This document shows, one piece after another, positions 8,656-57,808 of a stretch of DNA of 64,000 nucleotides. This DNA is from a virus, in IMG/VR virus record IMGVR_UViG_3300046028_008994, one strand, 5' to 3'. Every line of letters begins with the position of its first letter. Positions within the stretch are counted from its first letter, which is position 1. The notes beneath the pieces were generated by a model, which was not told where the DNA came from, did no database searches, and saw only the letters and a list, made by a program, of their open reading frames with translations. The position numbers were made by a program, and so were the translations under genes.

Positions 8656-8665
8656 AATATTTATA
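8656..8665 (+). promoter_or_regulatory. AATATTTATA motif, putative late promoter (example of a dispersed family)
   Basis: Same or near-identical motif ends 3-4 nt before ATG at 2711, 5899, 6651, 8669, 11704, 32478, 42618, 52274, 52496 and 57452. Confidence 0.6.
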
Positions 8666-8668
8666 ATC

Positions 8669-8959
8669 ATGAAAAAAGCAGATAACTTCAACCCTGGGAA
8701 GTGGTTAGTAGAAAACAAATTAACTAATCAATCACAGTTGAATGAAATGCCTATAATAATGGATCCTAATAGAAAAGTAGATTTAAATTCAATAGAACTT
8801 GATGGTGTTGATCCATCTGATTATCCTGATTTTTCTGATGCTTATGTAATATATGCTCAATACACAGATGGGACCCCACTAACAGAAGATGAATTAGATG
8901 AATTTAATGATAAACATTATGATATAGCTCAGGAATTAGCTTTAGAAAGATTTTACTAG
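8669..8959 (+). CDS. acidic protein with shared MKKADNFNPGKWLVENKL leader
   Basis: First 19 aa identical to 53149..53484. Confidence 0.75.
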   Translation: MKKADNFNPGKWLVENKLTNQSQLNEMPIIMDPNRKVDLNSIELDGVDPSDYPDFSDAYVIYAQYTDGTPLTEDELDEFNDKHYDIAQELALERFY

Positions 8960-8986
8960 AAAATAAAATTAAAATTTTATAACATT

Positions 8987-9021
8987 AAGGCTTGGGAAAC
9001 CAAGCCTTTTTTTGTATATTA
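8987..9021 (+). promoter_or_regulatory. Terminator hairpin overlapping promoter for polB
   Basis: AAGGCTTGG-gaaa-CCAAGCCTT, T-run, GTATATT. Confidence 0.75.
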
Positions 9022-9028
9022 ACAGAGA

Positions 9029-11689
9029 ATGTATCAATCAATTTATTATGATAAAGACGAAAAACAATATTATCTAAGAGATGATAGTTGGGAAGGCTTT
9101 AAGGAATTCCAATATTGGCCTACTTATTATCAAAAAGATTATGAAGGTGAATTTGAAACATTAGAAGGTGAACGAGTATCTGCTGTTAATCGTATTAAAG
9201 ATTGGAAAGATACAAGTTATTTTGAAAAAGATGTTGATAGAACCACACGTTTATTAGTAGACCAATATTATGAATCAGACGAAACACCAAAATTCCACAA
9301 TATTGTTTATTTAGATATAGAGTGTGAAATATTAGGTGCATTAACCGAAGAAAGTATTAAACAAGCATTAGCTAAAATAACAGCACTTGCTTTATATGAT
9401 AATAATTCTAAAAAATACTATTGTTTAATATTAGATGAAACAGGTACTATGGAAGAAGTACATGATGATACTAAAGAGGTAATACCTTACACTTCCGAAT
9501 CTGATTTATTACATGGTTTTTTAAATAAATGGTATCAATTAGATCCTACAATTGTTACAGGATGGAATAGTATGTTTTTTGATATACCTTATTTGTATTA
9601 TAGAATAAGTAAAGTATTAGGTACAGATATAGCTAAAACATTATCTCCAATCAATAAAATAAAAATAACACCATATTCAGAACAACCAGTAAGTATTGGA
9701 GGGGTTGCGCATTTAGATTATATGCTTTTATTTAAAAAGTTTATTACTAAACAAGAACCAACTTATCGATTAGGTGATATTGGTACTAAGTATGTTAAAT
9801 TAGGTAAAATTGAATATGATGGTTCATTAGATAATTTATTTAGAGAAGATGTAAATAAGTTTATTGAATATAATGTTCGAGACGTTGAAATTATTGTTGA
9901 ATTAGAGAAAAAATTAAAATTTATTGAATTAACAATTACAATTTGTCATTTGTGTCATACTGATTACGAACAGATTTACTTATCAACAATGTTAAATGAG
10001 GGAGCAATTTTAACATATTTAAAACGTAAAGGAATTGTTTCACCTAATAAACCTACAACAATGAATCCTGCTTTAAGGGATTTAAGTGTTAAAAAAGCAA
10101 AATGGGAATATGAGCAAGGTAATATTACTAAAGAGGAATTAGAAGAAATTATATTCTTAGCAGAATATGCAGGTGGTTATTTAAAAGATCCTATTCCTGG
10201 TTTATATGAGTGGGTTATTGACTTAGACTTTACCTCGTTATATCCTTCAATCATTCGTTCACTTAATATGGGTATTGAAACTCTAGTAGGTCGTGTTGTA
10301 AATGGAGGTAAATTTGATAATCAATGGTCTTTAAAGGAATTAAAACAAATGGATCCTAATAAAGTAGTTGTTATTGAAAAAATTAAAAAGAATAGAACAA
10401 TTGCTACTTCACAAATTACAGTAGGCGGATTAATTAGTATTATTGAAAGTAATGATTTAATAATTTCTGCTCCTGGTGTTATATTCCGTAAAGATAAATC
10501 TAGTATTGTTTGTGAAATTTTATCTGATTGGTTTGCTAAACGTCAAGAATATAAAGATTTGATGAAACAAGCATACAAATCAGGTAATAAAGAGTTAGGT
10601 GATTTTTATAATAGTAGACAACATGCTTACAAGATTAAATTAAATGACGTTTATGGTGTATTTGCTATTAACGGATGGAGATACACAGATGGTAATAAGT
10701 TTATATCTAAAGCTATTACACTAACAGGTCAACGATTAACACAAGAATCAATTAAATTTGTAAATATTTGGTTAAATGAACAATTAGGTACAGAAGATAA
10801 AGATTACATTGTAACATCAGATACTGACTCGTTGTTTATTCAAGTTAAAGATTTAATATTATTCCGTAAACCAGAATTAGCCACTGCAGATCAAGAAACA
10901 ATTGTACAAGAGGTATTAAAAGTTGCTACTGAAATACAATCATTAGCAAATAATTATTTAAATACTTTAGTACAAGAGTTATTTAACATTAAATTTCCTG
11001 ACGAACCACATTATTTTGAATTAAAACAAGAGGTTGTATTAGATAGAGGTTATTTTGCAGGTAAAAGAAGATACGCAATGCATATTGTTAATAAAGAAGG
11101 TGTAACAGTAGATGAACTAGATGTTAAAGGATTAGATTTGATGAAATCAAATTTCCCTCCTATATTTAGAAAATTTGGTGAACATATTATTAATGAAATT
11201 ATGTTTGGTAGAGAAAAAACTGATATTGATAAACAAATTCTAGATTTTAGAACATCAATAAGAACAGTTGATTGGAGAACAATATTAAAACCAACAGGTT
11301 TAAAGAAGATGAAAGAATATATTGCATCACCTCCTATGACTGGTGATATATTTTCAAGATTAGGTAACAAATGTCCAATTAATACAAAAGCTGCTATTTA
11401 TTATAATGATATTTTACGATTTAAAAAGTTAGATAAAAAATATCCAACATTTCAAATTGGTGATAAAATGTTTATAGCTTACTTAAAAGACAACCCATAC
11501 CGAGTTGATGTTGTAGGATTTAATGGGTATAATGATCCACCTGAAATAATGGAATTTGTTGAAAAATATATAGATAGAGACGGTTTATTTGATTCAGTTA
11601 TGAAAAATAAATTAGAATCATTATATTCAGATTTAGGATGGGGTGCTGTAGTATTAAATCAAAATATTAACAAATTCTTTAAGTTTTAG
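9029..11689 (+). CDS. family B DNA polymerase (T4 gp43-like)
   Basis: Exo DIE, GWNS.FFD and YNVRD; pol DFTSLYPS, KIKLNDVYG, SDTDS, KRRYA. Confidence 0.97.
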   Translation: MYQSIYYDKDEKQYYLRDDSWEGFKEFQYWPTYYQKDYEGEFETLEGERVSAVNRIKDWKDTSYFEKDVDRTTRLLVDQYYESDETPKFHNIVYLDIECEILGALTEESIKQALAKITALALYDNNSKKYYCLILDETGTMEEVHDDTKEVIPYTSESDLLHGFLNKWYQLDPTIVTGWNSMFFDIPYLYYRISKVLGTDIAKTLSPINKIKITPYSEQPVSIGGVAHLDYMLLFKKFITKQEPTYRLGDIGTKYVKLGKIEYDGSLDNLFREDVNKFIEYNVRDVEIIVELEKKLKFIELTITICHLCHTDYEQIYLSTMLNEGAILTYLKRKGIVSPNKPTTMNPALRDLSVKKAKWEYEQGNITKEELEEIIFLAEYAGGYLKDPIPGLYEWVIDLDFTSLYPSIIRSLNMGIETLVGRVVNGGKFDNQWSLKELKQMDPNKVVVIEKIKKNRTIATSQITVGGLISIIESNDLIISAPGVIFRKDKSSIVCEILSDWFAKRQEYKDLMKQAYKSGNKELGDFYNSRQHAYKIKLNDVYGVFAINGWRYTDGNKFISKAITLTGQRLTQESIKFVNIWLNEQLGTEDKDYIVTSDTDSLFIQVKDLILFRKPELATADQETIVQEVLKVATEIQSLANNYLNTLVQELFNIKFPDEPHYFELKQEVVLDRGYFAGKRRYAMHIVNKEGVTVDELDVKGLDLMKSNFPPIFRKFGEHIINEIMFGREKTDIDKQILDFRTSIRTVDWRTILKPTGLKKMKEYIASPPMTGDIFSRLGNKCPINTKAAIYYNDILRFKKLDKKYPTFQIGDKMFIAYLKDNPYRVDVVGFNGYNDPPEIMEFVEKYIDRDGLFDSVMKNKLESLYSDLGWGAVVLNQNINKFFKF

Positions 11690-11703
11690 TAATATTTATA
11701 ATT

Positions 11704-12225
11704 ATGAAAGATAATTTTGATGTTCATAAATGGAATAATCAACGAAAACTAACAGAAGCTAATATTTTTGAAATAAAAATAAATAATCCTTTATCATTAG
11801 TAAGATCAAATTTTGACTATGATGGAACTTTTCTATATTTTACCACACAAGAGGGAGGTAAACTATTAAAAAAATTATTACCAATGCCATCACCATCTAT
11901 TTTATCAATTTACTATAAAAAAATACTACCAGAAAATCCTGAGTATCCTAATGTTGTTCAAGAAGCAAAAAAAGCACTTAATGTTATATTATTATCTTCC
12001 TTAAAAGATAATCCTAATATGACTTTTCGTTTATCAACAATTAAAGAAGACTCTTTATCAAATGGTATGGTTGTTGTTTTAGATATGGATAAAGAAAATA
12101 ATAATGAAGAAAAAAATATTATAATGAGAACTATTAATGACGCTTTAAGTTCATCTGTTGATGATGTTTTAGAAGATATAGTAAATGGAAATGAGGCAGG
12201 AGATTATGAAGAATATGATGAATAA
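11704..12225 (+). CDS. protein with MKDNFDVHKW...LTE leader
   Basis: AATATTTATA upstream, hairpin downstream; leader related to the 8669/53149 pair. Confidence 0.7.
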   Translation: MKDNFDVHKWNNQRKLTEANIFEIKINNPLSLVRSNFDYDGTFLYFTTQEGGKLLKKLLPMPSPSILSIYYKKILPENPEYPNVVQEAKKALNVILLSSLKDNPNMTFRLSTIKEDSLSNGMVVVLDMDKENNNEEKNIIMRTINDALSSSVDDVLEDIVNGNEAGDYEEYDE

Positions 12226-12247
12226 TATAATTAATAGATTTTAAATT

Positions 12248-12283
12248 AAGGCTTGGATAACTAAGCCTTTTTTTGTATATTTA
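12248..12283 (+). promoter_or_regulatory. Terminator hairpin overlapping promoter
   Basis: AAGGCTTGG-ataa-CTAAGCCTT, T-run, GTATATTT. Confidence 0.75.
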
Positions 12284-12296
12284 TAATAAATAAGTT

Positions 12297-13037
12297 ATGA
12301 TTAATAAGTTAGATCTTACGGCTATTATTTCCAAGTATTATTTAAACGGCCTAGTTGAAGCCGTTAAATGGGAAATTCAAGATAACAACCTTTCAATTAA
12401 ATTCACTGCACCTGACCGTTCAATGTTAGGTATAGTTAAGCACAGTAATTTTGAAATCGAAGATTCTGTGTTCGGTGTTAATAATACAACACAATTAAAC
12501 AAACTACTAGGTATTACTAATGGTTATTTAGATCTTAAATATATTAAATACAATAATAAGATTACCAAATTAGTAGTATCAGATAATCAATTTACTTTAA
12601 ATTATGCTGTTGCTGATATACAAATTATCCCAAAAGCAGGAGAATATATCGGAGATGATAGTTACAACATCATGGCTGATTTAGATAATGAAAGTATTAA
12701 TGCTATTGTTAAAGCTAAATCAGCTTTAGCAGATAGTGATACAGTTGTATTTAAACCTCACACAGGTGCTGATGGAGATTTACAAATGGAAATGGAATTT
12801 GGTGGAAATATAGAACATTCTAATAAAGTATCGTTTTATATACCAAATATCAAAACAAAAGACTTACCTACAAACTTTAAAGCACATTACAATTCAGATT
12901 TAATAAAAGAAATAATGTATTGTAATAAAGATGTAGCTACAGGTAAAATGGTTATAAATTTAGATGGGATTATGAGTTTAGTATTTGAAAGTAATAATCT
13001 TAAAAGTGAATATTTTCTAGTTGCAAAAGAAGTATAA
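12297..13037 (+). CDS. DNA sliding clamp (gp45/PCNA-like)
   Basis: 246 aa, C-terminal EYFLVA, position between PolB and clamp loader. Confidence 0.7.
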   Translation: MINKLDLTAIISKYYLNGLVEAVKWEIQDNNLSIKFTAPDRSMLGIVKHSNFEIEDSVFGVNNTTQLNKLLGITNGYLDLKYIKYNNKITKLVVSDNQFTLNYAVADIQIIPKAGEYIGDDSYNIMADLDNESINAIVKAKSALADSDTVVFKPHTGADGDLQMEMEFGGNIEHSNKVSFYIPNIKTKDLPTNFKAHYNSDLIKEIMYCNKDVATGKMVINLDGIMSLVFESNNLKSEYFLVAKEV

Positions 13038-13092
13038 GAAAATTTGGATATTATAAAAAATCATCGTATATTTAGTGTAATTAAATTTAGTT

Positions 13093-13416
13093 ATGACAGA
13101 AATAAAAGAACCATCAACCTCCAACACAACAATTATTAGAGATCCTAAAATTGAACCATTTTACATAAGTAAAGATGCTTATTGTTATACTATCTTTAAA
13201 ACGGTTACTCCTGATATAAGATACACAGAAAATAACCAACCAGGTAAAGAATATTCAAAATCATTAGGACATTATAGTAGCTTTGCAAGTTGTTTAAAAG
13301 CTTTAGCAAAAGAAAAAGTAAATGACAATCAAAATTATAGTTCTATACAAGAATATATTGATAAATTTAAAAAATTAGAAACATCAATTAAAGAATTATT
13401 AAACGTAGTAGATTAA
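13093..13416 (+). CDS. hypothetical protein
   Basis: 107 aa ORF with own TTGG-N19-TATATT promoter. Confidence 0.6.
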   Translation: MTEIKEPSTSNTTIIRDPKIEPFYISKDAYCYTIFKTVTPDIRYTENNQPGKEYSKSLGHYSSFASCLKALAKEKVNDNQNYSSIQEYIDKFKKLETSIKELLNVVD

Positions 13417-13424
13417 ATAAAAAT

Positions 13425-13733
13425 ATGAAATTAGAAGCATTATACAACGCAGTTATCGTTAAGCCATTTGAGGCTGAGGAAACAACTCACGGAAACATTA
13501 TAGTTCCCGATTTAGGAAATGAAAAAAACAAACTAGGAAAAGTAGTAGCAGTAGGAGATGGATATTATTCAGTTACTGGTGCTTGGTTAGACACAATTTT
13601 AGAAGTAGGAAATATTGTTGTATTACCAACTATGGGATTTACTAAATTAGAACACGAAGGTGAAGAATATTGGATTGGACCTGAAAATCAAGTATTAGCT
13701 CGTCTCAACAATGAAACAGAAGAAAAAATATAA
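13425..13733 (+). CDS. groES: co-chaperonin GroES
   Basis: ETTHGNIIVPD, GKVVAVGDG; adjacent to groEL. Confidence 0.92.
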   Translation: MKLEALYNAVIVKPFEAEETTHGNIIVPDLGNEKNKLGKVVAVGDGYYSVTGAWLDTILEVGNIVVLPTMGFTKLEHEGEEYWIGPENQVLARLNNETEEKI

Positions 13734-13738
13734 AAATC

Positions 13739-15349: not shown

Positions 15350-15360
15350 ATTTAAAGAAA

Positions 15361-31815: not shown

Positions 31816-32466
31816 ATGCCCAAAGCAAAACCATTAAAAAAAGAAGAAATCATAGCGGCAATGGCTAAAACCAAATCCGTTCGTTCTGCTTGCCGTTACT
31901 TAAATTGTTCATACCAACACTTAAAAAAATGGATGAAATTTTATGAAGGTGAAGATGGTAAATCTTTGTTTGAACAACATAAAAATCCTGCAGGTAAAGG
32001 TATTCCTAAGTTTACTAATAATTCACCATGGAAACGAAAAGAACCTGCTATATTAGATATTGTTGAAGGTAGAGTAGATCCATCTCATTTAAACCCTCAA
32101 AAAGTTAAATATAAACTTATAGAAGCGGGTTATTTAAAAGAGGAATGTAGTACGTGTGGTTTTCATGAACGACGCGTTATAGACTATAAAATGCCGTTAA
32201 TTATGCATTTTAAGAATGGTAACAAACAACATTACACTCTTAATAATCTTCAAATGCTTTGTTATAATTGTTATTTTCTTTATGTAAATAGTATTTTTAC
32301 TGAAAAAGAAATCGAAAACATGGAAGATCATGTTCCGCGTAATGGAAGTAAAGATATCCCTGAAAAATTACAAATTGATGAATATACTCAGAAAAGATTA
32401 GATGAATTAGGAATATTTGGTAAAGACGATACAGAAGATCCTTATAATTTAGTATCTTACAAATAA
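31816..32466 (+). CDS. HTH plus HNH-like nuclease
   Basis: N-terminal HTH; CSTCG...HFKNGN...NLQMLCYNC. Confidence 0.7.
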   Translation: MPKAKPLKKEEIIAAMAKTKSVRSACRYLNCSYQHLKKWMKFYEGEDGKSLFEQHKNPAGKGIPKFTNNSPWKRKEPAILDIVEGRVDPSHLNPQKVKYKLIEAGYLKEECSTCGFHERRVIDYKMPLIMHFKNGNKQHYTLNNLQMLCYNCYFLYVNSIFTEKEIENMEDHVPRNGSKDIPEKLQIDEYTQKRLDELGIFGKDDTEDPYNLVSYK

Positions 32467-32477
32467 TATTTATAAGT

Positions 32478-32912
32478 ATGATTAAATTTTTAAATATATT
32501 AGAGGAATCAATTGATATTTACTCTTTAGATAAATTAAATTCTTTTGCTAATATTACAATATATACTGAAAATGCTGATGAATTTAGGGTTAGTTTTTCT
32601 CCTAAAAATTCTCCTAATAAATATCAATTATCTATTTATAAAATAGATGAATATTATGAAGTACAATTTGGAATAATAGAAAAAGGAATAATTAAAACTA
32701 GTGTTTTAGTAAATGATAATTTTACTTTATCTGTATTATCTATAGTTTTTAGTTTATTAAGATATTATATTGATGAATATTCTGTTTTTGCTTTTGAGTT
32801 TGAGGCATATGATATACGACCTAAATTATATAATTTATATCTTGATAAAAATTTTACAGATTATGATAAATATAAAATGGGTCCTAATGAATTTAGATTT
32901 ATTAAAAAATGA
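32478..32912 (+). CDS. protein with MIKFLNILEE leader
   Basis: AATATTTATA 3 nt upstream; leader resembles 42618. Confidence 0.6.
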   Translation: MIKFLNILEESIDIYSLDKLNSFANITIYTENADEFRVSFSPKNSPNKYQLSIYKIDEYYEVQFGIIEKGIIKTSVLVNDNFTLSVLSIVFSLLRYYIDEYSVFAFEFEAYDIRPKLYNLYLDKNFTDYDKYKMGPNEFRFIKK

Positions 32913-33190
32913 AAATAGAAGAATATTTAAGTAAGTTTAATAATAAAAAATATGATTTATCTTTAAAAGAATTCTTTTTAACAGAAGAAGCTTTAAATAA
33001 AGGTATAACTGTTGAAGAAGAAATAAAATATCAAGAATCAACATTTGATGGTTTTCTTCTTGATATAGATTTTACTATAATTATGTTTTTAATAGATATA
33101 GAAGATAAATTTAATGTAGTTATTAATGATTATGAGGTAGAAAATATTAAATCTATTAATGATCTAATTAAAAAATATTTATCAATATGA
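32909..33190 (+). CDS. acyl-carrier-protein-like protein lacking the Ppant serine
   Basis: IEDKFNVVINDYEVENIKSINDL matches ACP helices II-IV; no DSL. Confidence 0.5.
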   Translation: MKIEEYLSKFNNKKYDLSLKEFFLTEEALNKGITVEEEIKYQESTFDGFLLDIDFTIIMFLIDIEDKFNVVINDYEVENIKSINDLIKKYLSI

Positions 33191-34723: not shown

Positions 34724-35479
34724 ATGAAAACAAATATATATTATCTATGTAGAGAAGATAAAGTTCCATTTTATGTAGGAAAAGCTAATAACTTAAAAAT
34801 TAGAGAAAACCAACATAAATTAAAATTAGGGAAAAACATTATTTTAGAAGCAATAGATGAAATACCAACAAATGAATGGAAATTTTGGGAAAAACATTAT
34901 ATTTCTTTATTTAAAAGTTGGGGTTTTATTTTAGTAAATAAAAATGAAGGTGGTGGAGGAGAATTATATAGATCCGAAGAAACTAAACAAAAATTAAGAA
35001 AACCTAACCCAAAAGCAGGTAGAAGAGGTCCATTAAATCAAGAAATAAAAAATAAAATAAGTAAATCAAAAACAGGAAAACATCATACTGAAGAAACAAA
35101 ATTAAAAATATCAAACTCAAATAAAGGAAAATTGGTTTCACAGGAAACATTAGATAAAAAAAGAAAGGCAATGGTTGGTAAAAAATTTACTGAGGAAACT
35201 AAATTAAAGATGAGTATGTCTTCAAAAGGTAAAACTAAATCTCTACTTCATAAAGAAAAAATAAAAATACATCTTGATAATATTAAAGATAAAATAAGAA
35301 AAGCAAAGAGTAAACCTGTTTTACAATATGATTTAGAAGATAATTTTATTAAAGAATGGAATAGTATGACTGAAGTAAGTAATACTCTAAAAGAAATAAA
35401 AACATCAGGGATAAGTCGTTGTATATGTGGTAATCAAAATTATTATAAAGGATTTATATGGAAAATAAAAATAATTTAA
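34724..35479 (+). CDS. GIY-YIG homing endonuclease with NUMOD3 repeats
   Basis: IYYL...FYVGKA, NKNEGGGG, repeated HTEETKLKIS, PVLQYDL...FIKEW. Confidence 0.85.
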   Translation: MKTNIYYLCREDKVPFYVGKANNLKIRENQHKLKLGKNIILEAIDEIPTNEWKFWEKHYISLFKSWGFILVNKNEGGGGELYRSEETKQKLRKPNPKAGRRGPLNQEIKNKISKSKTGKHHTEETKLKISNSNKGKLVSQETLDKKRKAMVGKKFTEETKLKMSMSSKGKTKSLLHKEKIKIHLDNIKDKIRKAKSKPVLQYDLEDNFIKEWNSMTEVSNTLKEIKTSGISRCICGNQNYYKGFIWKIKII

Positions 35480-37116: not shown

Positions 37117-38343
37117 ATGGAATCAAAACAATTAATCAAAGTATTAGCGTTAGTCCTCGCTATCACGGTGGCTGTAATTATCAATCCGTTCTCATGGAAT
37201 GATGCTACTGAAAGAACAGTAATTACCCAAATGAGTGGTAAACAATTTGTAGAATTTAAACCGGGTGTGTTTTATGCAGGTTTCTTTTCTAAAGAAACAA
37301 CTTACCCAAATCAAATTTCAGTATCACATATGGATACTGCATTTAATGGTGATTATAGTTTAACAGATAACACATGTGAAATAGGAGTAATCAAAGACGT
37401 TAGGTTTAATGATGCAACTACAGCAGTTATTTCAGGTATTACTCAGTATATTTTACCTCCAGGTGAAAAAGAAATGATTGAAATACATAATGCTCATAGA
37501 TCACCAGAATCATTTGTACAACGTAGATTAGCACCTTACACAATTGAATGTTTAAAATCAAGCGCTCAGTTAATGAGTTCTGAAGCCCATTACAGTGGTG
37601 GTAGAGCCCAAATGACACAAGACTATATGGATCAACTTAGAAATGGTTCTTATTTATTAAATATTAGAGAATTAATTTTATATGATTCATTAGAAAAATC
37701 AAATAAAAGAACATATGCTGTACAAATTCAAGTAAGTAAAGGTGGTGATAAATTAAGAAAATTCAGTTCAATTAAAGAATACTCTGTAATTGTAGGTGAT
37801 GCTCAAATAATTGATGTTGACTATGAGGTAAAAGTTGATGAAATGTTATCTAAGAAAATTGATGCCGCTACTAAAGCAAGTATTTCAAAACAAGAATTAA
37901 TGACTGCTCAACAAAAGCAATTAACAGCTGAAGCTCAAGGTAAACAAACATTGGTTGAGATTGAATATAAACAAAAACAAAATCAAACAATTGAGGTAGT
38001 AAAAGCACAAACGTTAGTTGAATTAGCTAAACAGGATTTAATCAAACAAGAGATTGCTAGACAAGCCGCTGAAAAAGAAGCTGCTAAAATTAAAATATTA
38101 GCAGATGCTCAAGCATATGAAAAACAAAGATTACTTCAAGCCGATGGTGCTTTGGAACAAAAGTTAAAAGCATATACAACAGTAATGGGATATTGGTCCA
38201 CAGCGTTTTCAAATCACCAACATCCATTAACACCAACGTTTATGATGGGTAGCGGAAATGGAGGTAATGCAGGAACGAATTTCATGGAATTAATGAACAT
38301 GAAAACAATGAAAGATTTAAATCTAGACTTCAAAACTAAATAA
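37117..38343 (+). CDS. SPFH/band-7 membrane protein
   Basis: N-terminal TM, SPFH core, Ala/Glu/Gln coiled coil (AEAQG, ADAQAY). Confidence 0.8.
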   Translation: MESKQLIKVLALVLAITVAVIINPFSWNDATERTVITQMSGKQFVEFKPGVFYAGFFSKETTYPNQISVSHMDTAFNGDYSLTDNTCEIGVIKDVRFNDATTAVISGITQYILPPGEKEMIEIHNAHRSPESFVQRRLAPYTIECLKSSAQLMSSEAHYSGGRAQMTQDYMDQLRNGSYLLNIRELILYDSLEKSNKRTYAVQIQVSKGGDKLRKFSSIKEYSVIVGDAQIIDVDYEVKVDEMLSKKIDAATKASISKQELMTAQQKQLTAEAQGKQTLVEIEYKQKQNQTIEVVKAQTLVELAKQDLIKQEIARQAAEKEAAKIKILADAQAYEKQRLLQADGALEQKLKAYTTVMGYWSTAFSNHQHPLTPTFMMGSGNGGNAGTNFMELMNMKTMKDLNLDFKTK

Positions 38344-38367: not shown

Positions 38368-38404
38368 AAGGCTTGGTTATCCAGGCCTTTTTTTGTATAT
38401 TTAC
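38368..38404 (+). promoter_or_regulatory. Terminator hairpin overlapping promoter for cassette array/thyA
   Basis: AAGGCTTGG-ttat-CCAGGCCTT, T-run, GTATATTT. Confidence 0.72.
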
Positions 38405-41539: not shown

Positions 41540-41592
41540 TGTAGAAAATGTATTTTTCATATATTTATAATCAACGGAATGTTGATAGATTT

Positions 41593-42372
41593 ATGGAAAA
41601 TTATTATTTATATTATCATAAAAACCCACTAACTAAAGAGTTATTTTATATTGGGATAGGAACAAATAAAAGAGCATGGGATTTTACCTCAGGAAGAAAT
41701 CCTCATTATAAAAATTATATTAAAAAACATGGTGAACCTATAGTGGATATAATTAAAGAAAATCTTACTAAAGAAGAAGCATGTTCTATTGAAATGGAAT
41801 ATATAGCTAAATATGGAAGAAAAGGAATAGAACCTAAAGGTATATTACTAAACAAAAGTATTGGAGGAGAGATTATTGCTTTAGGAAATAAATTTACTGA
41901 AGAGCAAAAACAAAAAATAGTTCAAGCTAAAACAGGACAAAAATATAATATACCTGAAGGAAGAGCCCATGGTAGTAAAGGTAAACCTAAACCTGATGGA
42001 TTTATGAGTGATGAAATAAAAGAAAAAATTAGCAAAGGAAATAAAGGAAAAAAACATAGTAAAATTCACAGTAATAAAGGAATACCTATCTCTGAAGATA
42101 CTAAGCAAAAAATAAGTAAGGCTAATTCTAAACCCAAACCAGAAGGTTTTGGAAATACTATTAAACAAAATAGAAACCATAAATTAATAGGAGAAAAAAA
42201 TAGTAAACCTATCATTCAATTAGATACTCAAAATAATATAATTTGTGAATTTAAATCTGTTAAAGAAGCACTTAAATATTTTAAAAAATCAATAAATAAC
42301 TCTTGCATAACAGCTTGCCTAAAAGGAAGACAAAAAACAGCTTTTGAGTATGTTTGGAAATACAAAGAATAA
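41593..42372 (+). CDS. free-standing GIY-YIG homing endonuclease
   Basis: YLYYH...FYIGIG..RA, E...I, LLN; NUMOD3-like repeats; YVWKY tail. Confidence 0.85.
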   Translation: MENYYLYYHKNPLTKELFYIGIGTNKRAWDFTSGRNPHYKNYIKKHGEPIVDIIKENLTKEEACSIEMEYIAKYGRKGIEPKGILLNKSIGGEIIALGNKFTEEQKQKIVQAKTGQKYNIPEGRAHGSKGKPKPDGFMSDEIKEKISKGNKGKKHSKIHSNKGIPISEDTKQKISKANSKPKPEGFGNTIKQNRNHKLIGEKNSKPIIQLDTQNNIICEFKSVKEALKYFKKSINNSCITACLKGRQKTAFEYVWKYKE

Positions 42373-42602: not shown

Positions 42603-42617
42603 TTAATATTTATAATC

Positions 42618-42863
42618 ATGATAAAATTAACTGACATTTTGGATGAAATTAAAACAGATATCAATGAAATAAGCGATGTGAAATATGCTTATTATATGCT
42701 TAAATATGATAATAATGAAAAAACATATATGACTAGTGGTTATCTTAAAGTATTAAGTTTTATAAGTAGTAATAATATAACTGATTACGAATTATATGGT
42801 AGAAAATTTAATCCTAAAAATCGTTCAAATGAATGGGAATTTATTGAAAAAACTAATGTCTAA
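42618..42863 (+). CDS. protein with MIKLTDILDE leader
   Basis: AATATTTATA 3 nt upstream. Confidence 0.65.
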   Translation: MIKLTDILDEIKTDINEISDVKYAYYMLKYDNNEKTYMTSGYLKVLSFISSNNITDYELYGRKFNPKNRSNEWEFIEKTNV

Positions 42864-50049: not shown

Positions 50050-50068
50050 GAGCCCTGTAAAAGGGCTC
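50050..50068 (+). terminator. hairpin after phosphoesterase
   Basis: GAGCCCT-gtaaa-AGGGCTC. Confidence 0.5.
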
Positions 50069-50106
50069 AAATTTTGTAATATTTATTATCGACCAAAACA
50101 ATAAAT

Positions 50107-51034: not shown

Positions 51035-51577
51035 ATGATATCAGAAAGTAGTATAATAGAAGGTTGTTTGAATGAAAACAAAACATACCAAAATGAGTTA
51101 TATAAACGATACTCAAGTAAAATGATGGTAGTGTGTTTGAGATACGCAAAGGATAAAATGGAAGCCGAAGATATTTTGCAAGAAGGTTTCATAAAAATTT
51201 ATGATAATATTTCTAAATTTAGGATGCAAGGTTCTTTCGAGGGTTGGATTAGACGAATTATGGTGAATACTGCTCTTAATAAAATAAAAACCACCAAAAT
51301 GGTGTTTGAAAATATAGATGATATTGGTGATGAATTTATTGAACCGATTATTGAAGATACAACATTGAATGAAAAAGTATTATTAGATATAATAAGTAAA
51401 TTACCTAAAGGATACAAATATGTATTTAATATGTACGCAATTGAAGGTTTTAATCATAAAGAAATTGCTAATAGTTTAGGGATAGAAGAAGCGAGCTCAA
51501 GAAGCCAATACGCGAAAGCAAAAAAATATTTACAACAAAAATTAATTGAATTACAAAATGGAGAAATTAACAAATAA
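51035..51577 (+). CDS. ECF sigma-70 factor (Bacteroidota type)
   Basis: AEDILQEGFIKI, SFEGWIRRIMVN, LP.GY..VFNMYAIEGFNHKEIA. Confidence 0.92.
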   Translation: MISESSIIEGCLNENKTYQNELYKRYSSKMMVVCLRYAKDKMEAEDILQEGFIKIYDNISKFRMQGSFEGWIRRIMVNTALNKIKTTKMVFENIDDIGDEFIEPIIEDTTLNEKVLLDIISKLPKGYKYVFNMYAIEGFNHKEIANSLGIEEASSRSQYAKAKKYLQQKLIELQNGEINK

Positions 51578-51839: not shown

Positions 51840-51995
51840 AAAATAAAGAAAATGAACAATGGTTAACAGTTGGAGGTAATACAACTAAAGATACAACACA
51901 CCCCGGCTTAATATCATTTGATAATAAAGAAGAAGCAGAACTTACCTTATTATCTTTAAAAACAGACAATTGGAGAATAATTAAAATAAAATAAT

Positions 51996-52262
51996 ATGCC
52001 TAGATTTTTAGAGTACGTAGAAACAGAAGCCGAATTAGATATTTCAGTAAGTGATTTTTATAATGAATTAAATCATAAAGAAGTAAAAGAACTTATTAAT
52101 ATACTAATTGAAGAAGATTACATCAAAAGAAATGATGTTGTTGAAGATGAATCAATATATGAATGGGAATTCAATAAAATAATTACTAAAATAGCAAATA
52201 ATAGAGTGATGTTAACCGCAGAAGAAGAGGAATTACTTAAAAAAATATCTGATAGATTCTAA
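51996..52262 (+). CDS. hypothetical protein
   Basis: 88 aa, acidic. Confidence 0.55.
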   Translation: MPRFLEYVETEAELDISVSDFYNELNHKEVKELINILIEEDYIKRNDVVEDESIYEWEFNKIITKIANNRVMLTAEEEELLKKISDRF

Positions 52263-52273
52263 TATTTATAAGC

Positions 52274-52483
52274 ATGACATTCAATGATTTTAACTTAAGA
52301 AAAAAACAATGGTTCCTTGAATGGAGTGAGAAATGGGGACCTATGGATGTAGATTTAAAAACATTCATGTTAATGCATGGTGTCACGGAAGATCAATTTA
52401 ATGAATTGAGTAATTATAAACCTAATGTACCATCTCCAAGTAAAGATGATTATGATGATTTTCATCCTCACGAATCCTTTTAA
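52274..52483 (+). CDS. hypothetical protein behind AATATTTATA motif
   Basis: Motif 52261-52270. Confidence 0.6.
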   Translation: MTFNDFNLRKKQWFLEWSEKWGPMDVDLKTFMLMHGVTEDQFNELSNYKPNVPSPSKDDYDDFHPHESF

Positions 52484-52495
52484 ATATTTATTATT

Positions 52496-53095
52496 ATGAA
52501 TAATGAGTTTAAAAGATTACAGCAGTTAGCTGGTATTAAAGAAATAACTATAAGTGATCCAACTAAACCAAATATAAATAATTTAGAAATAGGAGATAAA
52601 TTATTAGTTAAGTATATAGATCCATTAGATATTTTTTTGGGTTTTAAAGTAGGGGAGGTTTGGGAAGTAGTGGAAATTGATGATGATCGTAGTTATTATA
52701 GATTAGAAAGAAATAACTCAAGTATTGGTTTTCGAGGAAAAAACATGAAAGACTTAGTTAATAAAGGTACATTTGAATATGCTAGAGGACCTGAAATTAA
52801 TGAGATGGTAGTTAAAGATCCTCGAACTAAAAACCTAATTGGTGATATAGTTCTTTTAGATAAAAAGTTTATTGATAAAATATCAAAAATGCCATCTGAT
52901 TTTAATCAAACAAAATTAGCCAATGATTTTTATGGTAAATATGAAGACTATGGAATTATAGATGCATTAGATATGGATTATGATGAATTAAGAGAAAAAC
53001 TTGGGAATCAACAATATAAATCATTAATGAAATTATATGAAGAACTAAAGTTAATGATGAATAAATTACCAAACACTATTGATGAAATATTTTAA
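52496..53095 (+). CDS. protein with NEFKRLQQLAGI leader
   Basis: Leader shared with 57452; internal INEMVVKDP repeat of the junction motif. Confidence 0.7.
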   Translation: MNNEFKRLQQLAGIKEITISDPTKPNINNLEIGDKLLVKYIDPLDIFLGFKVGEVWEVVEIDDDRSYYRLERNNSSIGFRGKNMKDLVNKGTFEYARGPEINEMVVKDPRTKNLIGDIVLLDKKFIDKISKMPSDFNQTKLANDFYGKYEDYGIIDALDMDYDELREKLGNQQYKSLMKLYEELKLMMNKLPNTIDEIF

Positions 53096-53112
53096 AACAT
53101 TATAATATTTAT

Positions 53113-53149
53113 ACAAAATAACAAAATAACAAAATAACAAAATAACAAA
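53113..53149 (+). repeat. tandem ACAAAATA x4.5
   Basis: Between AATATTTATA (53104) and ATG 53149. Confidence 0.85.
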
Positions 53150-53484
53150 TGAAAAAAGCAGACAACTTTAACCCAGGAAAGTGGTTAGTAGAAAACAAAT
53201 TAACTAGTACTTCCAAATTATTAAACGAAAACAAAAATTTAGGTCCTAATGATTTTGATACATTTCAGTGGAAAGATGCCCCCGCAAACCCAAATGCTCA
53301 AGTAAAAGACTTAGAAGAAGGTGATACTATGTCTAAAAAAGATTTTTGGGATGGAAATGTTACAGACCGTGGAGATGATAGTATACCATCATATGGTAGT
53401 GAAGATGAAAACGGTGTATGGACATTTTCTTGGGATTCTGGTGAATTTGAAGGATTTGTTGAAGGTGAAGATTTCACAATTTAA
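53149..53484 (+). CDS. acidic protein with shared MKKADNFNPGKWLVENKL leader
   Basis: Leader identical to 8669. Confidence 0.75.
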   Translation: MKKADNFNPGKWLVENKLTSTSKLLNENKNLGPNDFDTFQWKDAPANPNAQVKDLEEGDTMSKKDFWDGNVTDRGDDSIPSYGSEDENGVWTFSWDSGEFEGFVEGEDFTI

Positions 53485-53508
53485 CTAATTACAAAATATT
53501 TTTAATTT

Positions 53509-53543
53509 AAGGCTTGGGAAACCAAGCCTTTTTTTGTATATTA
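53509..53543 (+). promoter_or_regulatory. Terminator hairpin overlapping promoter
   Basis: Same sequence as the 8987 element. Confidence 0.75.
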
Positions 53544-53549
53544 AGGTAT

Positions 53550-54797
53550 ATGGTTAAACTTTCACACGCAGGAAACAATATAGTTGGTTCCGAAATTATT
53601 AAAATCTCACAACACATAAAGCAAGTACAAAAAACAAAACGTGTCTTAAATTTAACAATGGGTGATTTTGATCCTTACGTTAATCCAATTCCTGAAACGT
53701 TAAAAGAGGAAATAATAAATGCTTATTCAATTGATTTAACTAATTATCCATTATCTTCAGGTGAATTATCTTTAAGACAATCAGTTAGTAGTTATTTTAA
53801 ATATAGGAGAGGTATTAAATATAATGAAAACGAGATATTGGTAGGATGTGGCGTCAGACCATTGATTTATACCGTATTTAAAGCGATTGTAGATGAAGGT
53901 GATGTAGTTGTGTATCCTGTACCTTCTTGGAATAATAACCACTACTCATTTTTACACAATGCTGATTTAGAACCAATTGAATGTACACCTGAGAATGCTT
54001 TCTTTCCAACAGTTGAGGATATTGAATTAAGAATACATTACACAACATTGGTTTGTTTATGTTCACCTCAAAACCCAACAGGTAGAATAATTGATAAACA
54101 AGTATTAAAAGGTATATGTGATGTTATTGTTAATGAAAATAAACGTAGAGGTAGTTATGAAAAACCTTGTTATTTATTCTTTGACCAAATTTATTCTGAT
54201 TTAGTTGGTAAGGAATTTACACATCCATTAGATGTTTGTCCTGAAATTAGAGAATATTTAATATGTGCTGATGGTATTTCAAAATCGTTATGTGCAACAG
54301 GTGTTAGAGTAGGTTGGTTAATGGGGCCTCAAAACATTATAGATAAAATGACTGAAATATTTTCACATATTGGGGCTTGGGCTGCTAAACCGGAACAAAA
54401 CGCTGTAGCATTTTATTTAAATAATAGAGAAGATATTGGTGAATTTATTCAACAAAAACAACAACAATATGATTTTATATCCTCTAAAATAATAAATTTA
54501 TTTAACTTAATGAAAGTAAAAGATTATGATGTTGATTGTCAGAATTCAGATGGTGGTATTTATATTTCAGTTTATTTAGGTTATGTTAATAATTTTCCAA
54601 CCACTGAAGAATATATTAATTTTTTAATTGAAAAATGTGGTTTAGGAATTGTACCTTTTGAGTATTTTGGTTCAAAAGAAAATAAAGGTTGGTTTAGAAT
54701 ATCAATTGGTAGTATTGATTCTAATAATATACACAATGTATTAGAAATAATTCATAATGCAATTATAAAATCTTCAAAAACAGATTTGGTTGCTTAA
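53550..54797 (+). CDS. class I/II PLP aminotransferase (aspartate aminotransferase-like)
   Basis: SPQNPTG, FDQIY, DGISKSLCATGVRVGW, WFRIS. Confidence 0.92.
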   Translation: MVKLSHAGNNIVGSEIIKISQHIKQVQKTKRVLNLTMGDFDPYVNPIPETLKEEIINAYSIDLTNYPLSSGELSLRQSVSSYFKYRRGIKYNENEILVGCGVRPLIYTVFKAIVDEGDVVVYPVPSWNNNHYSFLHNADLEPIECTPENAFFPTVEDIELRIHYTTLVCLCSPQNPTGRIIDKQVLKGICDVIVNENKRRGSYEKPCYLFFDQIYSDLVGKEFTHPLDVCPEIREYLICADGISKSLCATGVRVGWLMGPQNIIDKMTEIFSHIGAWAAKPEQNAVAFYLNNREDIGEFIQQKQQQYDFISSKIINLFNLMKVKDYDVDCQNSDGGIYISVYLGYVNNFPTTEEYINFLIEKCGLGIVPFEYFGSKENKGWFRISIGSIDSNNIHNVLEIIHNAIIKSSKTDLVA

Positions 54798-54837
54798 AAT
54801 CAATTTCGTACATTCACAACATAATAAAAAATAATAT

Positions 54838-55929
54838 ATGAATAATAGAGTATGTTTTAAAGCTGATGGAACTGATGAAACAGGTGTTAAAATTATTAAT
54901 GAATTAATAAGATTGGGTGGAAAGAACCCAAGTGATTATTATGGTACTTCTAATAACCGTTATTATTATATCAATGATAAAGGTAATGTAGATTTGGAAT
55001 ATGCTATTCCTGAAGGATATACATTAACAGAGTTACCATCTGAAGTAAAACTTAATATTAATAATAAAGTGTGTTTTAAATCTGATGGAACTGATAAAAC
55101 AGGTACTAAAATTATTAATGAATTAATAAGATTGGGTGGAAATAATTCAGGTAAATATAGTGGAAATGGTATAACATATCCTTTTTATTATATTACTGAT
55201 GAAGGATATATTACTCAGGAAAGTTATGTTCCTGAAGGATACACATTAACAGAGTTACCATCTGAAGTGAAACTTAATATTGGTGATGCTGTTAGGGTAA
55301 AACCGGATGCTCGTTATAGAACAGCTGTAGAGAATGATTGGAGAAGTGGTCCATTTAAACAAACAGCAAGAGAAATCCAATATATCTTTAAAATAGAAGG
55401 AGATCTTATTTGTATAGATTATAAAGATTATTGGGACCGAGATTACTTTGTAGTAGAAAGAAAAAACGTAGAATTAGTAGAATCAAAAATAAAAGAAATA
55501 AATATGAAAAATAGAATATTAACACCACAAAATGCAACTCGAATTATTACCATTGCTTGCTCAACTTGGAAACCAAAATTAGCTGAAAAATGGGCAACAA
55601 ATATTGTCTTAAACAAAGACACTGAAATCTCAGAGGAATTTTATCAAGAAATGAGAAAAGCTTGTACCTCAGACCAAAACACATTATTTGATGAAATATT
55701 TGGTAGTGATGAACAATTAATTAATATCAGTGATTTAGAGATAGGTGAGGCAATGAAAATTTATGATAATAATTCTCGTTGGAATGGTATAATTATAATG
55801 AGAATATGGGCTGAGGTTGATGAAGTTAGATATGTTGATATTAATAATCCTAGAAGTACTTGGAATAATAATCCTAAATTTATAGGTAAAAAAGTTAAAT
55901 TAACAATTACACACGAGGAAATAAATTAA
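54838..55929 (+). CDS. mosaic protein with tandem N-terminal domain duplication
   Basis: NN.VCFK.DGTD.TG.KIINELIRLGG...PEGYTLTELPSEVKLNI occurs twice. Confidence 0.7.
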   Translation: MNNRVCFKADGTDETGVKIINELIRLGGKNPSDYYGTSNNRYYYINDKGNVDLEYAIPEGYTLTELPSEVKLNINNKVCFKSDGTDKTGTKIINELIRLGGNNSGKYSGNGITYPFYYITDEGYITQESYVPEGYTLTELPSEVKLNIGDAVRVKPDARYRTAVENDWRSGPFKQTAREIQYIFKIEGDLICIDYKDYWDRDYFVVERKNVELVESKIKEINMKNRILTPQNATRIITIACSTWKPKLAEKWATNIVLNKDTEISEEFYQEMRKACTSDQNTLFDEIFGSDEQLINISDLEIGEAMKIYDNNSRWNGIIIMRIWAEVDEVRYVDINNPRSTWNNNPKFIGKKVKLTITHEEIN

Positions 55930-55951
55930 GTAAATTTAAAAATAATTGATT

Positions 55952-55990
55952 AGAGGGTTGGTTTCCAACCCTCTTTTTTGTATGTTTACA
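55952..55990 (+). promoter_or_regulatory. Terminator hairpin overlapping promoter
   Basis: AGAGGGTTGG-ttt-CCAACCCTCT, T-run, GTATGTTTACA. Confidence 0.72.
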
Positions 55991-55993
55991 TCA

Positions 55994-56257
55994 ATGAAAC
56001 AAACAGTAATAAAATATTATACAAACCAACAAATTACATTGGGTGAAGCTATTGAAATAATGGAAGAATATACCAAGTTAATAGATAAAGAAGGTGCATT
56101 AACTAAAGCTATGATTGATCAAATAATTAACCCAATGAATCCATTTGGTCCTGGTATGCTTCAACAAGCTGTTAAAATATCTGTTGAAACAGTTGAACAC
56201 ACTTTAGATATTACAAAAGTTCACAACAAAGAAGGAAAACTAATCAAAATATTTTAG
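55994..56257 (+). CDS. hypothetical protein
   Basis: Follows promoter. Confidence 0.55.
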   Translation: MKQTVIKYYTNQQITLGEAIEIMEEYTKLIDKEGALTKAMIDQIINPMNPFGPGMLQQAVKISVETVEHTLDITKVHNKEGKLIKIF

Positions 56258-56299
56258 AAAAAATTTGGAGCAATAAAAATCAATTCGTATGTTTACACT

Positions 56300-56500
56300 A
56301 TGTTATTAGAAGAAGCAAAAATACTAGCCCAACAAGGAATTAAAGTAACACATCGTTATTTCACATCTGATGAATATATGACAATGCGCGGTAATATGAT
56401 TGTGTTTGAAGATGGTTGTGAAATATTCTTCAATGATTGGGTTGAAGGTAAAGATTATTTAAAAGAAGGTTGGGAAAAATTTGAAAAAGATTTGGAGTAG
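56300..56500 (+). CDS. hypothetical protein
   Basis: KVTHRYF..DEY; own promoter. Confidence 0.6.
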   Translation: MLLEEAKILAQQGIKVTHRYFTSDEYMTMRGNMIVFEDGCEIFFNDWVEGKDYLKEGWEKFEKDLE

Positions 56501-56559
56501 TGAGATTCGATTCGTATGTTTACATCAATAAAAAAATAAAAAATAAATAAATAAAGGTT

Positions 56560-56949
56560 ATGTCAAAAAAATCATCAAAAACAGCAAAAGTTGCAGAAAC
56601 AGTAGTAGAAACAGTAGCAACAGTAGAAACAGCAGTAGTTGAAACAGTAGTAGAAACACCTGCAGTAGAAGAAGTAGCAACAGCAGTAGAAGCAGTTGCT
56701 GAACCAAAACAATTAGGCCGTAAAGTTAATCCTAATTCAGTTCGTCAACAAAAATTAGCTAAAATTGCAGAATTAAAAGCTCAAGGTGTTGAAATTAAAA
56801 GAGGTCGTAATGCAAACCCAGAATCAAAGAACCAACAAAAACAAATGAGATTTGAAGCGTTGCGTGCTCAAGGTTTTGAAGTAAAAAGAGGTAGACCAAA
56901 AATGATTAAAGCTGAAGTAGTAAATGTTGAAGCTGTAGTTGAAAATTAA
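56560..56949 (+). CDS. putative DNA-binding protein with AT-hook-like motifs
   Basis: Low-complexity VETV N-terminus; GRKVNPNS, KRGRNANPES, KRGRPK. Confidence 0.6.
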   Translation: MSKKSSKTAKVAETVVETVATVETAVVETVVETPAVEEVATAVEAVAEPKQLGRKVNPNSVRQQKLAKIAELKAQGVEIKRGRNANPESKNQQKQMRFEALRAQGFEVKRGRPKMIKAEVVNVEAVVEN

Positions 56950-57030
56950 TTAGAACACTTGAAAACAATTTAAGAAAGGCTTGATTTTCCAAGCCTTCTT
57001 TTATATATTTATAACATAATAAAAAATCAA

Positions 57031-57429
57031 ATGAAAATAAATAATCCAGTAAATGCTCTTATTAAAATAGGCAAGTACGTAGTTAATCCATCAACATCAA
57101 CAAATAAACAACTAACTAGATATACTTGGGATGATGCTGTTAGTAAAAAAATAGTTAAAAGTGTAACTAAAAACAATGTTGAAAATTTATTCAACACTTT
57201 AGGAATAAAACCAACCAAAGTAGAAGTAGAAGATATTTATGGTCGTGCATCTATTTATGTGTTTGGTGAAGTAAACGGAACTAAAATAATATATGCTAGA
57301 AGAGAAAGTGATTCACCAATGGCAGGACAAACTAAAGTTTATTCACCATACGCTGTAGTTAGATTATTACATATAAAAAATCTACCTAAAGATGAAATAT
57401 TACAAGCATTAAAAATACCTAACTCTTAA
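57031..57429 (+). CDS. hypothetical protein starting MKINNP
   Basis: TATATTTATA upstream; start equals the post-leader motif of 11704 (EIKINNP). Confidence 0.6.
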   Translation: MKINNPVNALIKIGKYVVNPSTSTNKQLTRYTWDDAVSKKIVKSVTKNNVENLFNTLGIKPTKVEVEDIYGRASIYVFGEVNGTKIIYARRESDSPMAGQTKVYSPYAVVRLLHIKNLPKDEILQALKIPNS

Positions 57430-57451
57430 AAATATTTAAATATTTATAATC

Positions 57452-57808
57452 ATGAAAAAAGAAGTATTAAACGAAGAATTTCTTAGAATGCAAGAATTAG
57501 CAGGTATTGTTAATGAAATGCCTATAATAAAAAATCCATTATTAAATAAACGTGCAATTGAAGTAATTAAAGAATGGATTTGGTATACTTGTGATGAAGG
57601 ACAAGCAACAGATGATATCAACAAATATAATAAAATGGTTGACGAATATTTTGCTAATAAGAATGAAGTTATTTCAAAAGAGGATTTTCACAAAATTTGG
57701 GAAAAAGTAGTTGAAAAATGGGGAGTTGGAGATGTGGGAGCTGATTGGGAAGCTTTTGACGAAACATGGGAAGATGTTCAAAACGGTACTTTAATGGGAA
57801 CATATTAA
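57452..57808 (+). CDS. protein with LNEEFLRMQELAGI leader
   Basis: AATATTTATA 3 nt upstream; NEMPII shared with 8669. Confidence 0.7.
   Translation: MKKEVLNEEFLRMQELAGIVNEMPIIKNPLLNKRAIEVIKEWIWYTCDEGQATDDINKYNKMVDEYFANKNEVISKEDFHKIWEKVVEKWGVGDVGADWEAFDETWEDVQNGTLMGTY

Follow-up and report, generated by a model that had tools for sequence, protein, structure and literature searches.

In phage T4 the capsid-targeting sequence (CTS) system comprises the internal proteins IPI, IPII and IPIII, Alt, and the 10-residue propeptide of gp24; the internal proteins carry propeptides of 10-19 residues that target the core and are removed by the prohead protease gp21, which cuts after L/I-x-E (PMC9026906, PMC3012670). 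In the giant phages phiKZ, 201phi2-1 and SPN3US, head and ejection proteins are cut after S/A-x-E (PMC9026906, PMC5694885), and the T4-type phages RB49 and phi1 carry promoter-early stem-loop (PeSL) elements, which are mobile regulatory cassettes (Arbiol et al. 2010, PMC2839356). Likenesses to each of these are found in the DNA analysed here, a stretch of 64,000 nucleotides (the window) that corresponds to bases 66463-130462 of the 171,684-bp IMG/VR record IMGVR_UViG_3300046028_008994, a record with direct terminal repeats. Seven genes of the window, all on the + strand and named below by the window position of their first base (w8669 and so on), share N-terminal leaders of three types. An earlier interpretation made from the letters alone (the sequence-only reading) had described them as portable modules of late promoter, targeting leader and unrelated cargo. 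The anatomy is a real, non-chance feature, and it is best read as an expanded and diversified T4-type capsid-targeting system, carried on mobile late-gene cassettes and including a previously undescribed leader that mimics the tail of the scaffold. The cassette products are, in our judgement, probably pre-proteins whose leaders target them to the head, where they would be loaded and trimmed by a gp21-type protease.

Class A leaders have 10 residues, a T4-like amphipathic pattern and the form MI(K/R)(F/L)xxI(L/I)xE. They open w32478 (32478-32912, 144 residues; leader MIKFLNILEE at 32478-32507) and w42618 (42618-42863, 81 residues; leader MIKLTDILDE), and the motif MIK(F/L).(N/D)IL.E that had been noticed in both is present on translation. 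The pattern ^MI[KRS][FL]..I[IL].E matches six proteins genome-wide against 0.0005 expected from shuffles, with E at residue 10 in all six. Class B leaders, of about 16-22 residues, read (MKKQIL)NEEFxR(M/L)QxLAGI-h-x-E and are referred to below as LAGI leaders. They are found in w52496 (52496-53095, 199 residues; leader MNNEFKRLQQLAGIKE at 52496-52543) and in w57452 (57452-57808, 118 residues; leader MKKEVLNEEFLRMQELAGIVNE at 57452-57517, followed by the junction MPIIKNP), whose translations do contain EF.R(L/M)Q.LAGI as claimed. Class C leaders are longer, at about 26 (up to 27) residues, and read MKKADNFxxxKWLVENKLTxxSxLxE. In w8669 (8669-8959, 96 residues) the leader MKKADNF..KWLVENKLT..QLNE occupies nucleotides 8669-8746 with a predicted cut after E26, and in w53149 (53149-53484, 111 residues) the first 19 residues are the same and the predicted cut falls after E27 (LLNE). 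The reported identity of this shared leader, MKKADNFNPGKWLVENKLT, was borne out: the DNA is 93% identical over 58 nucleotides, and all four differences across the 19 codons are synonymous. The leader MKDNFDVHKWNNQRKLTEA of w11704 (11704-12225, 173 residues), said to be related, is on translation a diverged version, and this class C variant (MKDNFDVHKWNNQRKLTEANIFE, 11704-11772) is followed by the junction IKINNP. About 15 class A-C candidate genes are present in the genome.

At the predicted leader end (L/I/V)-x-E stands in seven of seven genes, and the junctions listed by the sequence-only reading (LNE|MPIIMDP, VNE|MPIIKNP, IFE|IKINNP, IKE|ITISDP and an internal INE|MVVKDP) were all seen; a junction of the form E|[MI]x[IV]xxP recurs nine times in this genome. 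The internal INE|MVVKDP site lies in w52496 after E103 (nucleotide 52804), and with it w52496 looks like a polyprotein of two modules. The sequences downstream of the leaders, which had been called unrelated, mostly are; the exception is the module that follows the w52496 leader (..IGDKL..), which is paralogous to genes at genome 134482 and 134807. No significant PHROGs or Pfam family was found for any of the seven leader proteins, for the product of the gene at 57031 or for the 772- and 889-residue late proteins described below, and the paralogues at 134482 and 134807, searched in PHROGs only, had no significant family there. Structure searches on the cargos, which had been proposed as a check, gave in the ESM Atlas a weak SH3/FeoA-like hint for the first module of w52496 and nothing for w11704, and AlphaFold2 run without an alignment on w52496 reached a predicted local distance difference test score of 39. 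The label 'effector' that had been given to the cargos is a guess, and disposable core components are an equally possible description of them.

Two observations touch this modular structure. The late-motif gene at 57031-57429 (132 residues) has no leader and opens directly with MKINNP.., the junction that follows the presumed cut in w11704, so that it looks like a leaderless cargo module. The genome also encodes two paralogous late proteins without a family match, one of 889 residues (genome 2252-4921) and one of 772 residues (genome 54026-56344; L010:9026-11344). The latter combines a class A leader (MIRFTTILKE), the conserved terminator and, about 90 residues before its end, a LAGI-ITE|MPVISNP joint, and its residues 663-709 match residues 6-55 of w57452; from its sequence it is a candidate for a large packaged polyprotein.

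Compared with the T4 system, the points in common are a short N-terminal propeptide ending in (L/I)-x-E on otherwise unrelated, non-essential proteins, an encoded protease of the gp21 family, and a cargo set that varies between related phages. The likeness to the T4 targeting sequence that had been proposed for the leaders holds for class A, in length and amphipathic pattern, and fails for classes B and C, which are dissimilar. Class A leaders, with 10 residues and I-L/I-x-E at their end, recall the T4 CTS sequence MKTYQEFIAE and the gp24 propeptide MAKINELLRE, and MIKFLNILEE of w32478 resembles T4 propeptides in both length and form. Classes B and C are longer than the T4 signal (about 16-27 residues) and unrelated to it in sequence. 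Since the leaders are not sequence-related to the T4 CTS they were treated as CTS-like in working and not as homologues. Further differences from T4 are that the leader occurs also internally and at C-termini (as polyprotein joints), that a conserved junction follows the predicted cut site, and that the scale is far larger, with at least 932 cluster representatives for class B alone. In phiKZ, 201phi2-1 and SPN3US, similarly, a diverged homologue of gp21 processes many proteins of the head interior by cuts after Glu, and propeptides have redundant sites. P3 is hydrophobic here whereas small residues occupy it there, the genes here are dispersed single-gene cassettes, and the parts of the literature on these giant phages drawn on here describe no shared portable leader family.

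The evidence that points most directly to the head comes from outside the window. The genome (29% G+C, with almost all genes on the + strand) is that of an uncultured freshwater phage, a distant T4-like myovirus whose DNA polymerase shares 33% identity with the enzyme of Microcystis phage Mel-JY01; megablast of the whole window against the phage collection gave no match. A head-gene block follows the T4 order, with TerL, portal, four unknown genes, the gp21-type protease, scaffold and gp23-type capsid protein. The protease gene (genome 18272-18880) matches phrog_207 (E 3.8e-57) and lies between the portal and the scaffold and capsid genes. By its head genes the closest cultured relative is Flavobacterium phage vB_FspM_immuto (immuto), whose head block is syntenic. 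The acidic 353-residue protein encoded directly upstream of the capsid gene is taken to be the scaffold on the grounds of its gene position, its composition and 55% identity, in the alignable parts, to the immuto protein encoded between protease and capsid genes. Pairwise comparison of this scaffold with T4 gp22 gave no significant similarity (E 18), and the Pfam family PF25623 (T4_CASP), which T4 gp22 matches with E 6.8e-89, is matched neither by the scaffold nor by the leader proteins of this phage.

Elsewhere in the genome R-x-Q-x-LAGI is found in the genes at 134482 and 134807, at residues 669-676 of the 772-residue protein and in the last residues of the scaffold, which ends in ..NRWQILAGIKKI. 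In six relatives, the proteins whose genes lie immediately upstream of the capsid gene were compared with it, among them that of G004, a contig of 149 kb that shares 97% identity with this phage in its DNA polymerase protein. Their C-termini are RWQLLAGIKKQL (RWQLLAGI) in G004, NEAFLRMQKLAGII (LRMQKLAGII) in G001, ARMRELAGLHKK (ARMRELAGL) in G002, NRFQKLAGII in G003, SRWQKLAGIIK in immuto and ERMKKLAGIVK in Mel-JY01, so that a LAGI-type tail is carried by seven scaffolds in all; the C-terminus of T4 gp22 differs. The apparent copying of a conserved scaffold tail by a cargo leader is the strongest pointer to the head interior. Scaffolding proteins of phages such as P22 and phi29 have a C-terminal coat-binding region. 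A contact between scaffold and the N-terminal part of the capsid protein has been described (PMC9546572). As in the P22 and phi29 scaffolds, a short conserved helix-like C-terminal peptide would here be the best candidate for the element that docks to shell or core. Since class B duplicates this tail it probably docks at the tail's own site in the prohead, which suggests a docking partner different from that of the T4 CTS; and since the tail is that of the phage's own scaffold, the leader proteins are most likely loaded into the head and trimmed there. We know of no earlier description of a scaffold tail that is re-used to address other proteins from their N-termini.

The class B leader is widespread. 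A degenerate DNA pattern for EFxR[LM]QxLAGI, run over IMG/VR, returned at least 124 in-frame matches. Among the matches listed, the LAGI motif was N-terminal in 113 of 124, typically as MKKQILSEEFxRMQKLAGIITE, and h-x-E followed LAGI within 2-5 residues in 112 and after exactly three in 81; the corresponding 113 cargos of at least 40 residues fell into 65 clusters, so at least 65 unrelated cargo groups are represented. Internal copies often retain the Met of MKKQIL. Their appearance is that of adjacent cassettes fused into polyproteins in which each joint carries a leader. Word-index homologue searches limited to the leader had returned the query alone, such matches being too short for that method. 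The profile search that the sequence-only reading had called for was productive, as a hidden Markov model of 94 LAGI leaders retrieved 932 cluster representatives (E<=1e-3) among 1.84 billion proteins. In the best 150 matching proteins, 145 of 153 motifs were N-terminal and h-x-E stood exactly three residues after LAGI in 140. No Pfam family was matched by 110 of 120 leader proteins scanned, and a few LAGI cargos carry enzyme domains (HD, RecA-like, PBECR4 nuclease). Immuto gene 188 carries a LAGI leader too.

In other contigs the class C leader is joined to two further cargos, for four or more overall, and conservation ends at QS(R/Q)L(D/N)E. In immuto it is found in genes 194 and 195, just before TerL, and in gene 202, between protease and scaffold. 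A leader gene at this last position was sought in the present genome and not found; the gap of about 365 nucleotides between protease and scaffold (genome 18880-19246) holds no convincing open reading frame (ORF). Two immuto annotations look wrong: immuto_194 (L136:1006-2007), annotated as cob(I)alamin adenosyltransferase, starts with the class C leader, and immuto_204 (L136:9001-10242), annotated as 'DNA polymerase phi-like', is the acidic scaffold encoded between protease and capsid genes. Within class C, KWLVENKLT resembles EWLAENKLA of T4 gp22, a match (E 0.028) that was found after the fact and is a lead only. In T4 the EWLAENKL motif opens a stretch that is still conserved in cyanophage gp22, and at that place cyanophage and Vibrio phage gp22 have EW(M/A)x(E/D)N(A)(L/I/V), not ENKL. 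A possible further diverged member of class C is a 69-residue late-motif gene at 52274-52483, conserved in G004, whose start MTFNDFNLRKKQWFLEW is similar to ADNF..KWLVE of the leader.

Two observations connect the leaders with the protease. When the N-termini of the capsid proteins are aligned, the known T4 site FLTE|A falls on an invariant Glu; the capsid maturation site would accordingly read QLVTE|T in this phage and QIVSE|A, QLISE|A, QLVVE|A, QLVME|S and QLVVE|Q in relatives, all of the same I/L/V-x-E form as the leader ends. Furthermore, cargo that is exposed to the gp21-type protease encoded by the phage would be expected to be depleted in (L/I)xE. The ratio of observed to expected (L/I)xE was 0.83 in 214 LAGI cargos (0.71 without the first 12 residues) and 1.21 in 580 control ORFs without leaders from the same loci and strand. 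The bootstrap difference between cargo and control was -0.38 (95% confidence interval -0.49 to -0.28), and none of 1000 resamples reached zero. No depletion in LAGI cargos was seen for (L/I)x[D,Q,K,N,S], Ex(L/I) or (L/I)xxxE, and (V/M)xE was mildly depleted. This is the pattern that selection against internal cutting would produce.

Cassette turnover is evident from the comparison with G004, whose DNA is collinear and 80-94% identical over most of the aligned window, the cassettes being exactly where the two diverge. In place of w8669, G004 has an orthologue of the w53149 cargo upstream of the polymerase gene, and promoter, leader and terminator are the same there. On the downstream side of that gene, the position of w11704 between the DNA polymerase and clamp genes is taken in G004 by a GIY-YIG endonuclease gene, and in more distant relatives the polymerase gene directly adjoins the clamp gene. 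The gene w32478 and its neighbour are absent from G004; the indel (window 32476-33170) is edged by two copies of the promoter-like motif in this phage, at 32465-32474 on the left and at about 33175 on the right, and by one in G004. Likewise, w52496 and w53149 are missing from G004 (window 52474-53495), which retains the terminator, and the w42618 region could not be aligned with G004. The portability proposed by the sequence-only reading is thus substantiated, in that modules of promoter, leader and cargo, with or without terminator, are exchanged, relocated or absent in G004 with breakpoints at motif and terminator. The arrangement resembles PeSL cassettes in that small ORFans in variable regions are bracketed by a repeated promoter and a stem-loop terminator (w8669, w11704, w53149 and w57452), and in that close relatives differ at the repeated elements, by insertions, deletions and replacements. 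It departs from PeSL in that the promoter is a late-type motif preceding virion genes and not an early sigma-70-like one, and in that the repeated unit runs into the coding region as a peptide leader.

The motif AATATTTAT(A/T), stated to precede all the leader genes, does so in seven of seven. It lies at 8656-8665 (AATATTTATA, 3 nucleotides before the ATG of w8669), 11691-11700 (w11704), 32465-32474 (w32478), 42605-42614 (w42618), 52483-52492 (w52496), 53104-53113 (w53149) and 57439-57448 (w57452). Between motif and ATG of w53149 the untranslated stretch (53114-53148) is filled by a tandem repeat of about 4.5 copies of (CAAAATAA). The bare 10-mer shows weak enrichment in the window, with 16 matches where 7.75 were expected, and the motif core shows a strong coding-strand bias in the genome (75 on the + strand, 22 on the - strand). 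Within 60 nucleotides upstream, (A/T)ATATTTATAA precedes 46 of 248 genes, including TerL, portal, sheath, tube, baseplate and fibre; since these are virion genes we read it as a late-type promoter. As also stated, four genes are followed by a hairpin terminator, AAGGCTTGGGAAACCAAGCCTTTTTTT, which lies 3' of w8669 (8987-9013; AAGGCTTGGGAAACCAAGCC + T7, conserved), w11704 (12248-12274; variant loop), w53149 (53509-53535) and w57452 (57832-57858; GAGGCTTGGGAAACTAAGCCTC + T5). The hairpin AAGGCTTGGGAAACCAAGCC with a T-run has six copies in the genome, five of which follow leader-bearing genes. The sixth (38368-38394) follows the gene of a leaderless 408-residue protein (37117-38343) whose N-terminus looks like a membrane span.

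Several genes touch these elements from the side. An ECF-type sigma factor is encoded at 51035-51577 (Pfam Sigma70_r2 E 4.6e-15, Sigma70_r4_2 E 1.2e-10), and a weak second match to sigma region 2 at genome 141875-142585 is possibly a gp55-like late sigma. At least six paralogues have N-termini like GIY-YIG homing endonucleases (window 2711-3292, 34724-35479 and 41548-42372; genome 23831, 61745 and 9470), several of them preceded by the late-type motif. The stop codon of w42618 and the start of the gene that follows apparently overlap (ATGTCTAA).

Together these results can be accommodated in one mechanism. Late cassettes, consisting of promoter, gene and often a shared intrinsic terminator, would have been inserted between conserved early and replication genes, and their three types of N-terminal leader would act as head-targeting signals. 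The class B leader would dock where the scaffold tail docks in the prohead, at the inner face of the shell or at the core. After prohead assembly the gp21-family protease would cut after the (L/I/V)-x-E that ends the leader, and also at internal copies in multi-module proteins, and the cut would release the cargo inside the head, from where it may be retained in the virion and delivered to the host. Recombination at the repeated sequences of promoter, leader and terminator would account for the quick turnover of the cassettes. A more far-reaching proposal, which we advance tentatively and to which we give rather less than even credence, is that the LAGI leader is a transplanted scaffold docking tail. 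It would then constitute a second capsid-loading route, mechanistically distinct from the T4 CTS and working through the scaffold's contact with shell or core, and ORFan families in their hundreds to thousands, from aquatic T4-like phages that include those of Flavobacterium, would use it. Its cargo would be borne on recombining cassettes of late promoter, leader and terminator that move between sites and genomes, and the class C leader would likewise derive from the EW(L/M)xEN core motif of gp22-type scaffolds.

A number of observations weigh against this head-loading account. Although the P3 spacing shows the strongest (L/I)xE depletion, a mild one (0.81-0.84 of control) is seen at spacings 0 and 2 as well, and within this genome alone the trend is the same (0.93 against 1.21), small and not significant. 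Some proteins other than scaffolds also have LAGI at the C-terminus, and the motif could therefore be an interaction peptide of general use. A T4-like model does not foresee the conserved junction that follows the presumed cut. The promoter-like motif also precedes non-virion genes (clamp, homing-endonuclease-like and redox genes), and in about 20 of the 46 genes it ends 0-5 nucleotides before the ATG, an awkward position for a promoter; such genes (e.g. window 8656-8671, 32465-32480 and 57439-57454) show no visible Shine-Dalgarno sequence, and with this spacing the late mRNAs would be leaderless or nearly so, or else the motif would have a second role at translation start. A looser 'class D' leader (MKxxDLRxIIREE..) was set aside with low confidence, as TerL also fits it and its cargos are rich in (L/I)xE (observed/expected 2.17); the fit of TerL means that amphipathic N-termini alone prove little. 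For this phage and immuto our literature search turned up no proteomics of virions and no data on N-termini or on the timing of transcripts; nor did it find a paper on the virion proteins of Mel-JY01 or one extending capsid-targeting sequences to metagenomic T4-like phages. Finally, most cargos in the window are acidic. T4 IPII and IPIII, in comparison, are basic proteins.

The acidity leads to the rival that fares best, in which the leader proteins are auxiliary, disposable components of the prohead core that fill or size it and are degraded by the protease, nothing being delivered to the host. Class C proteins are strongly acidic like the scaffold (isoelectric points 4.1-4.7; 4.1 for the whole w8669 protein, whose cargo is acidic), which makes such a role possible, and the class C protein at genome 166885 is weakly similar to the scaffold. 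That the class B leader equals the scaffold tail, that the class C leader resembles the start of the conserved T4 gp22 core and that class D proteins abound in (L/I)xE would suit this role too. Yet LAGI cargos avoid (L/I)xE, which argues for survival of the protease and not for degradation, a few of them have enzyme domains, and the extreme diversity of cargos with their rapid turnover between close relatives fits an accessory role better than a structural one. We therefore regard the disposable-core explanation as unlikely.

A second rival places the function of the shared 5' ends in DNA or RNA, as homology arms for PeSL-like shuffling or as translation-start signals of near-leaderless mRNAs, with no peptide targeting. 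The PeSL precedent (PMC2839356), the bounding of indels relative to G004 by repeated promoter motifs and conserved terminator, and the short distance between motif and ATG would all fit. Against it, the leaders vary at synonymous sites and not in residues, their conservation breaks off exactly behind h-x-E, LAGI is present in internal and C-terminal positions and on the scaffold as well, and the (L/I)xE depletion of the cargo would be left unexplained, whereas cassette mobility is compatible with head targeting and forms part of it; this rival appears to us quite improbable. Equally improbable is that the leaders bind a partner outside the head (a host protein, tail or baseplate, or a chaperone) and that h-x-E is a compositional coincidence in helical sequence, for although direct head evidence for leader proteins is absent, LAGI also ends non-scaffold proteins and h-x-E is common in these AT-rich proteomes (observed/expected 1.2 in controls), seven scaffolds end in the LAGI-type motif, h-x-E keeps its exact three-residue distance from LAGI in both searches (81 of the 124 pattern matches listed, 140 of 153 motifs in the top profile matches), immuto class C genes lie within the head-gene block and the cargos are specifically depleted in (L/I)xE.

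If loading into the head followed by trimming is the true function, it would provide a capsid-interior address and a processing rule for about 1000 protein families that lack annotation, and the cargos would become candidates for the first phage proteins to meet the host, for example anti-defence or take-over factors. The class B leader suggests that new capsid-targeting signals may originate by the copying of scaffold pieces, and the cassettes, bounded by promoter, leader and terminator, suggest how cargo may be exchanged between phages. The idea is directly testable in the cultured relative immuto, which has class B and C leaders, and the leaders could serve as packaging tags in engineered Bacteroidota phages.

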